Below are positions 45,671-51,109 of a stretch of 64,000 bases of DNA, in pieces; position 1 is the first letter of the stretch, and every line of letters starts with the position of its first letter. The stretch covers positions 26,474,001 to 26,538,000 of the forward strand of contig NC_135901.1 in NCBI RefSeq assembly GCF_964194155.1. Reading direction: 5' to 3'. A program made the position numbers and the translations under genes. Below the pieces are notes generated by a model that ran no database searches, was not told the DNA's origin, and was given only the letters and a program-made list of their open reading frames with translations. The stretch is from Cetorhinus maximus. Taxonomy: Eukaryota.

Positions 45671-46215
45671 CCTGTCCCTGTCAGCAGGAGGAGAGAATGT
45701 CGTGCATTTCTATCCTGGACTGACAGGGATGGAATTTGGAAACTCCTTTTACAGGGGTTTAGAAGGGGAAGGTTTACACATAGCAAACTCAAACCAAGAG
45801 AAATGTTTGTCTCTTCTCAATTCCTATCCTGCACTTAGAGCTTTAACTTTTGCAAACTCCTTTCACAGGATAGTAGAAGAGGGTTTGCAACAGGAATTTA
45901 AAAACAAATATCACATCAAGAAGTGACAGAGTCGTTGTGGACCTGAATATCATCAATCTTTGAATGTGGAAGGTGAAATGCTCATCTCTTCTGTCTCTGG
46001 AAAAGTATTTCAAACATCATTATAACTGAAAAAGCACCGAGACGTACGTGCAAACGCCCAAGTGAGAATGTTCTAGTGCACCTGTGCAAAGAACTTTAAA
46101 CAGTTACACAGTCTGCCAAAAACATATCACCATTCACAGCAGGAAGAAACTGTAAATGTGTGGACAAAGCTTCAACTGATAATCCATTCTTGAGAGACAC
46201 ATTGACACTGGCACC

Positions 46216-47109
46216 ATGGAGAAACCATGGAAATGTGGAGACTGTGGGAAGGTATTTAATTACCCATCCAAGCTGGAGATTCATCATCGCATTCACACTG
46301 GTGAAAGGCCGTTCACTTGCTTCGTGTGTGGGAAGAGATTTACTCAGTCCTCGCACTTTCTGGCGCACCAGCAAGTTCACACTGATCAGCGACCTTTTCA
46401 ATGTTCTGACTGTGAGAAAAGATTTAAAAGCAGAAATGATCTGCTGTCACACCAGCGCACTCACACTGGGGAGAGGCCATTCACCTGCTCTGAGTGTGGG
46501 AAGGGATTCACTCAGTTATCCCATCTTCTGACACACCAACTTGTTCACACCGATAAAAGACCTTTTAAATGTTCTGACTGTGAGAAGACTTTTAAAAGCA
46601 AAAGTGATCTGCTGACACACCAACGCATTCATTCTGGGGAGAGACCGTTCACCTGCTCTGAGTGTGGGAAAGGCTTCATTAATTCATCTGATCTTCTGAC
46701 ACACCAGCGTGTTCACACTGGGGAAAAGCCATTTGTATGTTCAGTTTGTGCGAAGAGATTCACTCAGTCATCCACCCTGCTGATACATCAGAGAGTTCAT
46801 ACAGGGGAGAGGCCGTACACCTGCCCAGTCTGTGGGAATGGATTCACTCAGTCATCCCACCTTCTGAAACACCAGCGAGTTCACACTGGGGAGAGGCCTT
46901 TCAAATGCTGCGTGTGTGGACAGGGATTCACTCAGTCATCCCATCTTCTGAGGCACCAGCGAGTTCACACTGGGGAGAGACCATTCATCTGCTCTGTGTG
47001 TGGGGAGGAATTCACTCAGTCATCCACCCTGCTGAGACACCAACGAGTTCACAACCGACTGAAGGGGTCAGATTCTGCTGTTATTGCTGCTAATCACATC
47101 CAGGACTGA
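46216..47109 (+). CDS. C2H2 zinc-finger protein, 10 fingers plus tail peptide
   Basis: 297-aa [15 protein letters not shown]...[12 protein letters not shown]. Confidence 0.9.
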
Positions 47110-47184: not shown

Positions 47185-47692
47185 CTCATGGGATGCAGGC
47201 ATTACTGGCTGGGCCAGCGTTTCTTGTCCACCCCTAATTGCCCTTAAGAAGGACGGTGATCAGCTGCCATCTTGAACTGCTGCAGTCCAGGTGGCATAGT
47301 TACACCCACAGTGCTGTTAGAAAGGGAGTTCCAGGAGTTTCACCCAGCGAAAGTGAAAGAACAGCGATATATTACCAATTCAGGATGGTGAGTGACTTGG
47401 AGAGGAATTTCCAGGTGGTGGTGGTGTTCCCATCTATCTGCTGTCCTTGTCCTTCTAGATGGTAGTGGTCAAAGGCTGTCTAAGGAGGCTCCATGAGTTC
47501 CTGCAGTGCATCTTGTAGACGGTACACACTGCTGCCACTGTGCATCAGTGGTGGAGGGAGTGAACGTCTGTGGAAGGGGTGCCAATCAAGCCAGCTGCTT
47601 TGTCCCGGACGGGGTCCAGCTTCCTGAGTGTTGTGGGAGCTGCACTCATCCAGGCAAGTGGGGAGAGTATCCCATCACACTCCTGACTTGTG
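47185..47692 (-). mobile_element. LINE 3' end (CR1-group family distinct from HER1)
   Basis: Reverse complement of the family at 48871-49218. Confidence 0.75.
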
Positions 47693-48870
47693 CTGGAGTT
47701 TAATATTCTGGATAAATGTCAAATAATTCAGCTTTGTTTTAAACACGTGGTTGTAGATTTTTGTCTTTCCCACTTGTGTGTTTAACATCACCCGACTGCA
47801 GCTCAAAGTACAATCTGTGGGGAGGATTGTACGGCAGGAACAGAACTTCAGCCTCGACACAGTCTGTCAGGGCAACACTGAGAGGGACAAGCAGCACTTT
47901 GGTGTCAGTGAAGAGAGATGCGAAAGACCAAAGTCCCCATGCGGGTGAATTCTGAGGTGTGTAAGAAATGTGTCACAGCCGCGATCTTCCATGGTTCAGA
48001 GCTCCTAGACACGGAACAGAAGGCTCCTTTACAACTGGGTTTAGAGTCAGGAAGAACAACAGTTAATGCTGGAAACATGCCGTCAAATCAGAGATTGGTG
48101 TAAAACTGTGATCTGTTCCTGACTGAAAGTGAAACGGCAGGTTTAAGTTTCCAGTCTGAAAATGACTGGTTACTAAACTCCGAATATTGAACATGTTTAT
48201 GTGACAGTCTTGAGTATCACTTTAAGACAGATGTTACCTAATTTCAAATAAAGCCAATGAAAATAAATTGGTTAAAGTCTCCATTATAATAGCAGACGGA
48301 GAAGTTCACAGGACCCTGTTAACTGCTGGGACAATTATATAACAGAAACCTTATCTCCAGATAAAGACATGTTTACTGAGAGTTGATGCTGGATTTGAAC
48401 AGAATGGGCTGATCCCAAAATTGTTTTCGTGAAGAGTTGGGTTAACATTGAGTTAAATCCGGTGTCTCTGCCTATTGGTTCATTCTTGACAGAATCAGCA
48501 GGTGGTATCCAATCAGGTCTTTTGTCCTCTTATTTATCCAGTCCGCTGAAAGCTCCTTTATTGTCCAATTCATGACATCAGAGCGGGCAGCAGTGAACGG
48601 AACAGGAAACAGGACAGGAGTTAAACACAATGTTGTCCCTTCAGTTTCAGTCTGGGAGGTGGGTGGAGTGAAGGGAAATAGTTCCTATTGTGCTTGTAGA
48701 AGTGCCAGTCATTAAAAGGGCTGTTCATTATCATCAGAGCTACCCACAGTGAATCACTGTGTGCAATTGAAATGACTAAAGTCTGCTGCCGAGACTTGGT
48801 GATGCTTTTAATTTGACTTAAACATTCCTGCTTAACAGTCAGGGGCTAAGGTTAGCATTATTGCAGGATG

Positions 48871-49218
48871 CACTGCAGGAACTCACCAAGCCTGCTTAAG
48901 CAGCACCTTCCAAACCAATGACCGCTACCATCTGGAAAGACAAGGGTAGCAGACACATGGGAACACCACCGCCTGGAAGTTCCCCTCCAAGTCACTCACC
49001 ATCCTGACTTGGAAATATATCGGCTGTTCCTTCACTGTCACTGCATCAGAATCCTGGAACTCCCTCTCTAACAGCACTGTGGGTGTACCTACACCACAGG
49101 GACTGCAGCGGTTTAAGAAGGCAGCTCACCACCACCTGCTCAAGGGAAATCAGGGATGGGCAATGAATGCTGGCCTAGCCAGCAACGCCTATATCCCATG
49201 AATGATTAAAAAAAAAAA
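48871..49218 (+). mobile_element. LINE 3' end (CR1-group), A-rich tail
   Basis: SWNSL...LQRFKKAAHHHLL coding end. Tail shared with the SINE at 28756. Confidence 0.75.
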
Positions 49219-49395
49219 TCGCAGCATTATGTAGAGATATCAATGGCAGTCTGAGATCAGCTGGTTTGAGGAGAGCCCAAATAACCTTTTCCCTGTGGAA
49301 TGGATGGTGCCTGTGGAACTATAGCTCATGAAGGAGTCAACCTGCTTTGGAGAACAGAGGCTGGGGTGGGGATTGTCTGCTCGGAATGTACGGGA

Positions 49396-49699
49396 GGTAT
49401 TTTACAGGAACCATCAGGTTTTGACTCTCAGTGCCTCGCTGCACATTAATACACTCCGGCATCGGCACCGCAATGCTGTCTGAGCAAGAATGCTATAACT
49501 CCTTGTTGGGTCAATGAGGGGTTTGAATCGTCGTTCTGTAGTATTTCCACTGAACGCCGATATGAGAAATTTCTGTTCAGTGGTTTCTGTACCAGTGGAT
49601 ACTCTTCGAGATTATGGTGACCGCATTTCCCTGGATTTCGATCGACTGTGCCTCCTGTGATTGGTGGAACAAAGCCTCTTCATTGCATATCACAGGCTC
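49396..49699 (-). pseudogene. Antigen-receptor V gene segment pseudogene (TCR alpha/delta-like) with RSS
   Basis: Minus strand: acceptor TGCAG, FHQSQEAQSIEIQGNAVTI, IHWYR, FLISAFSGNTTERRF..YSIL, ADAGVY*CAAR, then CACTGAG-22 nt-TAAAATACC. Confidence 0.65.
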
Positions 49700-49799
49700 C
49701 TGCACTCGGTTGATCAGGAATATTAAAGGAGAATTGGTTTAATGGGGGTTATTGGGATGTACAATCAAGGACATTATTTACATGGTAAATATCTTTCAT

Positions 49800-51109
49800 A
49801 CGGATTAGGAGCAGGAGTGAGGCCACTCGGCCCCTTGAGCCTGCTCCGCCATTCGATGAGATCATGGCTGACCTGATTGTAACCTCAACTCCACATTCCC
49901 GCCTACCCCCGATAACCTTTCACCCCCTTACTTATCAAGAATCTATCTAGCTCTGCCTTAAAAATATTCAAAGACTCTGCTTCCACCGCCTTTTGAGAAA
50001 GAGAGTTCCAAAGAGTCACCGTCCTCTGAGAAAAAAAAAATTCTCCTCATCTCTGTCTTAAATGGGTGACCCCCTTATTTCAAAACTGTGACCCCCTAGT
50101 TCTAGATTCTCCCACAAGAGGAAACATCCTCTCCACGTCCGCCCCATCAAGACCCCTCAGGGATCTTATATGTTTCAAGCAAGTCACCTCTCACTCTTCT
50201 AAACTCCAGCAGATACAAGCCTAACCTGTCCAACCTTTCCTCATAAGACAACCCGTCCACTCCAGGTATTATCTAGTAAGTCTTACGAACATAAGGAGCA
50301 GGAGTAGGCCATTCAGCCACTCAAGTCTGCTCTGCTATTTAATAAGATTGTGGCTGATTATGATTTGCATCCTACCTGCTCCCGATAACCTTTCACCCCC
50401 TTGCTTACTAAGAATCTATCCCGCTCTGCCTTAAAAATATACAAAGACTCTGCTTCCACCGCCTTTTGAGGAAGAGATTTCTCTGAGCTTCTTCCAACAT
50501 ATTTACATTTCTCTTTAAATAAGGAGACCAGTACTGTACACAATATTCCAAATGTGGTCTCACCAATGCCCTGTATAACTGAAGCATAACCTCCCTCCTT
50601 TTGTATTCAATTCACAATAAATAACATTCTATTAGCTTTCCTAATTACTTGTTGAACCTGCATGCTCGCCTTTTGTGATTCATGCACGAGGACACCCAGA
50701 TCCCTCTGCACCTCAAAGCTCTGCAACCTCTCACCATTTAGATAATATGCTTCTTTATTATTCTTCCTGCCAAAATATACAACCTCACATTTTACTACAT
50801 GATAATCTATTTGCCAGATCTTTGCCCACTCACCTAACCTATCTATATCCTTTTGTAGCCTCCTTATGTCCTCTTCACAATTTACTTTCCAACCTACCTT
50901 TGTGTCATCAGCAAATTTAGCAACCACACCATCAGCCCCCTTATCAAAATCATTAATATAGATTGTAAATAGCTGAGGGCCCAGCACTGATCCCTGTGGA
51001 ACTCCACTCGTCACATCTTGCCAATCTGAAAATGACCCATTTATACTTACTCTCTGTTCCCTGTTAGCTAACCAATCCTCTACCCATGCTTATGTGTTAC
51101 CCCCTGCAC
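49800..51109 (-). mobile_element. CR1 LINE fragments (two 3' ends plus RT), continuing at 56226-56380
   Basis: GVPQGSVLGPQLF and FADDTK. Tails at ~49800 and ~50288. Confidence 0.85.

Follow-up and report, generated by a model that had tools for sequence, protein, structure and literature searches.

A V-gene fragment within zinc-finger DNA

The window, by which we mean the whole 64,000-nucleotide stretch analysed here, corresponds to C24:26,474,001–26,538,000. Between positions 1543 and 61810 it holds six C2H2 zinc-finger arrays of 7–12 fingers each, amid LINE-like and LTR-retrotransposon-like fragments. Embedded in this DNA is a 1.44-kb island derived from an array of TCR V genes (48366–49801; positions without a contig name are those of the window), which contains a decayed V exon of TCR α/δ type, hereafter the relic, and also includes promoter DNA from the V gene that followed it in the array.

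On the promoter side the island is bounded by a high-copy LINE-like repeat (49802–51089, minus strand; repeat depth 19–56), which has a reverse-transcriptase-like open reading frame at 50607–51089 and which we take to be of CR1 type. Reading onwards along the minus strand, the island comprises a V-gene promoter and 5′ UTR with the stump of a start codon (49679–49801; ATG at 49683–49681), which is 76–85% identical to DNA upstream of the leader in V-array paralogs; the V exon itself (49434–49678), identified by alignment, tblastn and tree; a degenerate recombination signal (RSS) with a 23-nt spacer (49395–49433); and the 3′ flank of the V gene (49220–49394), which is partly common to V-array copies (BLAST homology to family loci from 49275 or 49282 to 49394). 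A high-copy repeat of very high depth (48880–49219; 30–40 hits per position in the local background) is inserted beyond this flank. The last piece, 48366–48749 on the minus strand, is by homology the promoter and 5′ UTR of a second V gene, which came next in the ancestral array; it breaks off two bases past the ATG of that gene (48370–48368). At C24:17.88 Mb and C24:13.857 Mb, DNA that shares 80–81% identity with this piece lies immediately before a V leader and exon. At the break, the V-array fragment meets zinc-finger-gene 3′-flank DNA in a sharp joint (47689–48365; 80% identity to DNA 3′ of the zinc-finger array at C24:19.446 Mb), with about 2 nt at 48366 common to both sides. The nearest C2H2 zinc-finger open reading frame (46183–47109, plus strand, ten fingers) converges on the relic.

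The framework pieces of a V segment noticed in the sequence-only reading are indeed present in order on the minus strand, spread over three frames. The Trp codon is at 49594–49592, and the second Cys codon (49445–49443) is kept, immediately preceded by a stop (49448–49446). That reading had the first Cys region deleted; in an alignment with 15 paralogs, the first-Cys codon (49630–49628) is instead substituted, and a separate 15-nt deletion lies upstream of it in FR1. The frame is further shifted by an 8-nt deletion in FR2 near 49574 and by two 1-nt deletions in FR3. In the same alignment, about 105 nt that would include the leader exon, the intron and the true acceptor are deleted at 49679/49678, and the ends of this deletion do not coincide with splice sites. 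Because leader and intron are gone, the ‘splice acceptor’ earlier proposed at 49699 is promoter DNA: it aligns with the promoter and 5′ UTR upstream of the leader ATG in the paralogs, which have promoter, leader and intron, whereas the window copy keeps the promoter only.

Two contigs, which probably come from the source sample, span the deletion junction and show no differences. Contigs from four sequencing runs likewise span 49623–49826 without differences, which does not amount to independent support since three of the four runs are one sample, maybe the source; 49238–49611 is not covered. We rejected a functional V segment on account of the deleted leader, the substituted first Cys, the frameshifts, the stop and the poor RSS (1.2 bits; see below). 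We also rejected an origin as a retrocopy, because the promoter and the DNA beyond the RSS are kept and the leader deletion ignores splice sites.

Searching the window with V paralogs by tblastn gave a match at the relic with E values down to 5.9e-13. The Pfam V-set profile gave a divided answer: it matched two of the three near-intact paralogs tested (E 1.6e-10 and 5.2e-9) and none of the three frame fragments of the relic itself. As judged by these sequence comparisons, the V identity of the relic is beyond chance, and its earlier description as a pseudogene of a rearranging V segment can be kept and narrowed to the TCR α/δ type.

Recombination signal and V family

The RSS had been placed directly after the V end, as a heptamer-like CACTGAG followed by a 22-nt spacer. 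The letters are there, with CACTGAG at 49433–49427 and TAAAATACC at 49404–49396 after 22 nt, but the homologous spacer is 23 nt long. Because the paralogs and the intact sister family have a 23-nt spacer, we set the register by them, with the spacer at 49426–49404 and the nonamer at 49403–49395. The mismatch rule implied by the first placement is satisfied by 21 of the 2,318 CAC sites in the window. Scored with a matrix built from 22 intact RSSs (leave-one-out), the relic RSS reaches 1.2 bits, compared with 16.5–26.0 for the intact ones, and 267 of 9,782 CAC sites in the surrounding 264 kb score equally well or better. Taken alone, the relic RSS is at chance level, and by sequence it counts as the RSS of this V exon only through its position and homology.

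A genome-wide DNA search with the relic returned 61 matches, which are pieces and not copies, on C24 and eight other contigs. In a tree of 26 V sequences, the relic falls inside a family of six (support 98/97) and outside the VH clade (98/98). The sister group of this family (99/95) is an intact V family that has a leader and, after the exon, a CACAGTG heptamer, a 23-nt spacer and a nonamer. TCR β and γ sequences are absent from the tree, and support for its deep branches is weak. TCR α chains are the commonest single-V entries in the top 60 PDB matches, multi-domain antibody constructs being ranked by summed score. We found no close public relative among the best 150 of 330 representative-protein matches, which share 25–37% identity over the domain, and a homologue search with a near-intact paralog among longer proteins yielded none in 12 candidates. 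Given no close relative among those best 150, the α/δ label rests on the tree, the neighbourhood and the PDB matches rather than on a rearranged transcript. An intact V segment from the same contig has shark proteins as its closest matches (56–77%), which, together with the IgM-type clusters and a germline-joined light chain in this genome, points to a shark as the source. According to Ott et al. 2018 (PMC5931798), the same V segments serve α and δ in five of seven families, so α and δ need not be told apart for the relic.

By our reading, all 21 family loci examined are broken (from 30 of at least 149 matches), by a frameshift after the acceptor, a deletion in FR1 or a stop at the first Cys. 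One family copy lies inside a dense TCR V array at C24:23.88 Mb, where 40 kb contain 14 V-like hits. The TCR V family, with at least 27 copies, appears to be dead genome-wide; it comprises three subgroups with common lesions, yet is still being duplicated.

Receptor genes of other kinds were seen elsewhere in the genome. Germline-joined VJ light-chain genes occur at C12:74.02–74.06 Mb, as known for shark Ig λ. Two single-exon VJ-type domains without an RSS lie on another contig (one at C14:114,634,430–114,641,866) and possibly belong to a non-rearranging or germline-joined receptor gene.

Chromosomal setting

The sole TCR δ/α J–C core of the genome lies on the same contig as the relic. Its constant exons were located with a shark TCR protein and reading frames; among 44 candidates in the genome, none matched Pfam DUF1968 (TCR α constant). 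Within C24:14.03–14.33 Mb and all on the minus strand, the core comprises a single Cδ (C24:14.233 Mb, matched with shark TCR protein), 17 δ-side J segments with 12-RSS (C24:14.238–14.282 Mb), at least 100 α-side J segments (C24:14.056–14.151 Mb) and Cα (C24:14.05 Mb). Two VH-like segments at C24:14.271 and 14.291 Mb sit among the δ-side J segments, within an apparent 20-kb duplication; they are TAILV-like, a name taken from PMC12227049.

The relic is located 12.3 Mb 5′ of Cδ. Since V arrays and core share its contig, the relic is not an orphan from another chromosome. The suggestion that the cluster borders an antigen-receptor locus holds at the megabase scale, the nearest V array found being 2.5 Mb away (with 24.0–26.37 Mb read only in part), but not locally, as no other V or J was detected within 264 kb around the relic. 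Those 264 kb contain 31 zinc-finger arrays; there are none in the 300-kb J–C core and none in 90 kb sampled from V arrays. Many more C1-set exons occur past the window, at C24:33–60 Mb. The window therefore probably lies inside rather than beside the complex, with Ig heavy-chain clusters continuing on its far side.

A strict pattern of V end plus 23-RSS gave 56 matches in the genome (reversed control, 0), 45 of them on C24 between 1.05 and 23.97 Mb and 11 on other contigs. After five VH-like matches were dropped, 40 remained on C24, with 31 located 3′ of Cα (16 minus, 15 plus) and 9 located 5′ of Jδ. A VH-type pattern gave 57 matches, 42 of them on C24 from 0.28 to 19.8 Mb. Over about 24 Mb of this contig, TCR V segments are mixed with IgM-type VH genes and with arrays of zinc fingers.

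Sixteen of the 40 canonical V-RSSs lie 3′ of Cα in the orientation of the J–C core, for which standard geometry would place the V–J join on an excised circle. Either they were carried along by duplications, or the assembly shows them in the wrong orientation.

This layout resembles the elasmobranch antigen-receptor complex (AgRC). Flajnik et al. 2025 (PMC12227049) describe V exons of TCR α/δ type between IgH clusters; on a chromosome of the great white shark, their Table S1 places such V genes, two of them labelled pseudo and in either orientation, between 8.6 and 17.1 Mb, and TCR α at 8.2–8.35 Mb. As in that complex, V exons on C24 are scattered among IgH clusters. By contrast, the V segments of C24 flank one J–C core on either side and cover about 23 Mb, with zinc-finger arrays between them, compared with about 9 Mb for the great white shark V genes in that table, and the relic stands apart from every V array, within zinc-finger DNA. 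The term ‘zinc finger’ has no occurrence in the text and supplements of PMC12227049, and a limited literature search found no published account of zinc-finger arrays interleaved with the shark antigen-receptor complex.

The relic also resembles the IG/TR V orphons of IMGT, which PMC7555362 describes as V genes displaced outside the main locus that cannot contribute to a receptor chain. It has likewise been displaced from a V cluster by DNA duplication and is unable to contribute to a receptor chain. It differs from orphons, as defined there, in remaining on the contig of the locus, at the outer edge of a region without a defined border, and in having five close copies within the V-bearing region or on VH-carrying contigs.

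Duplication, alternative explanations and meaning

The block that carries the relic is present in six copies, all broken, and all six have the joint between V-array and zinc-finger DNA. The proposal that a V segment was carried along with a duplicating zinc-finger cassette is supported: the copies lie within zinc-finger arrays, and some 26 kb, at 39.5–66 kb in window coordinates, are collinear with C24:4.92–4.94 Mb apart from insertions. Identity between the window copy and the remaining five is 91%, and among those five it is 97.2–99.9%. Four of the five are accompanied by a C1-set exon at a distance of 52 kb and, about 15 kb beyond that, by a VH, an IgM identity being assigned by inference.

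The V exon differs from the other copies at 27–31 of 245 sites (11–13%), compared with 9.0–9.7% in the flanks. Its divergence is no slower than that of the flanks and hence points to no constraint; selection on the exon was rejected on this ground, and selection on the RSS because its conservation is not significant (p = 0.57). The second promoter, 48366–48749, is less diverged, with 22–26 differences in about 383 sites (5.7–6.8%) compared with the same 9.0–9.7%, at p values of 0.012–0.12 from five non-independent comparisons picked post hoc, which is a weak hint of constraint.

We conclude, with a probability of roughly 0.88, that the relic is a broken V segment of TCR α/δ type with a decayed 23-spacer RSS, on a 1.44-kb piece of V array that was likely moved by DNA rearrangement into zinc-finger-cluster DNA and later duplicated together with it; we predict that the relic has no function. 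That the fragment went from V array to zinc-finger DNA, and not the reverse, is inferred, as is the order of events. The V family would first have decayed inside the TCR V arrays. A fragment running from the promoter of the relic V to the start codon of the next V would then have become attached to DNA on the 3′ side of a zinc-finger gene, and the roughly 2 nt shared at the joint suggest that this happened by end joining. Segmental duplication would subsequently have spread the fragment, the window copy splitting off first and the other five later, four of the latter in a unit that also carried an IgM-type cluster.

Other explanations concern whether the relic still recombines and whether part of it has found a new use. 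It could be a distal V of the TCR α/δ locus that still recombines, joining by a 12-Mb deletion. This would fit with relic and J–C core sharing the minus strand of C24 and the V lying upstream of the core, with the CAC of the heptamer being kept and with an RSS that differs from those of close copies at only 1–2 of 39 positions. That conservation is the same non-significant one noted above, however, and the RSS scores far under all 22 intact signals, which makes continued recombination very improbable; even if joined, the relic would yield no protein, for want of a leader and because of its frameshifts and stop. Slightly less improbable, and still only a slim chance, is that the coding part is dead and the captured promoter (48749–48366) has been co-opted to drive lymphocyte transcription antisense into the neighbouring zinc-finger gene. 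This promoter has the lowest 384-bp divergence of the 3.4-kb alignment (0.057), is cut exactly at its ATG and carries Ets- and CRE-like motifs at 48608 and 48580. The lower divergence, however, is significant in only three of the five non-independent comparisons, and in two of five without CpG sites; recent copies are no less diverged there (8–15 of 389 compared with 57–64 of about 2,270); and the adjacent zinc-finger pair is absent from the copy at C24:4.94 Mb.

The remaining two alternatives concern what kind of V domain this is. The supporting Vδ of NAR-TCR is a leaderless TCR-type V with a true splice acceptor and a 23-RSS, downstream of a NAR V–D–J, and the relic, as it stands in the window, is likewise a leaderless TCR-type V with a 23-RSS after it. 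Supporting Vδ segments are mentioned in PMC12227049, and both NAR-TCR cassettes and VH genes belong to the shark complex in its Table S1, so that the relic might be such a Vδ or else belong to the Ig VH type. An accidental deletion removed its leader, however, its paralogs having promoter, leader and intron; it has no true acceptor and no NAR V–D–J before it; no NAR-type or other V lies upstream within 114 kb; and the tree places it outside the VH clade. The paralog alignment largely refutes this reading, to which we give hardly any weight. An exon of a non-rearranging Ig-superfamily gene with a chance RSS look-alike would agree with the chance-level score of the signal alone, yet the exon ends a few codons past the second Cys with no J-like G strand, and at this position the paralogs and the sister family have a heptamer and a nonamer separated by a 23-nt spacer. 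The family loci already contradict this explanation, which we consider extremely unlikely as well.

A V-array fragment carried into zinc-finger DNA thus remains the preferred account, under which the relic is an ordinary V pseudogene of a known antigen-receptor complex and likely harmless debris. Scattered TCR V pseudogenes among IgM clusters have already been published for other sharks (PMC12227049). The size of the locus is the only striking point of the relic’s setting. Mammalian antigen-receptor loci extend up to about 3 Mb. For the human VH region, a size of 957 kb is given (PMC2212390). A wider interpretation, which we offer tentatively and hold to be possible rather than probable, is that the relic marks the outermost footprint of a TCR α/δ locus whose working V repertoire would lie to either side of a single J–C core and take up at least 23 Mb, interleaved with more than 40 IgM-type clusters and with zinc-finger arrays. 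RAG would then join segments 10–13 Mb apart, by inversion for V segments 3′ of Cα, and zinc-finger-rich segmental duplications would be expanding and scrambling the repertoire. This interpretation depends on repertoire data and on the assembled order of a region full of duplications.

In itself, the relic is of little weight, being one more V pseudogene. It is a record of DNA exchanged between arrays of TCR V genes and arrays of zinc fingers, and from its six copies one can date the duplications that reshape the antigen-receptor chromosome of a shark. The wider map of C24 is weightier than the relic: if V segments 10–13 Mb from the J–C core are indeed used, V(D)J recombination in sharks would work over distances well beyond the roughly 1–3 Mb of mammalian loci.
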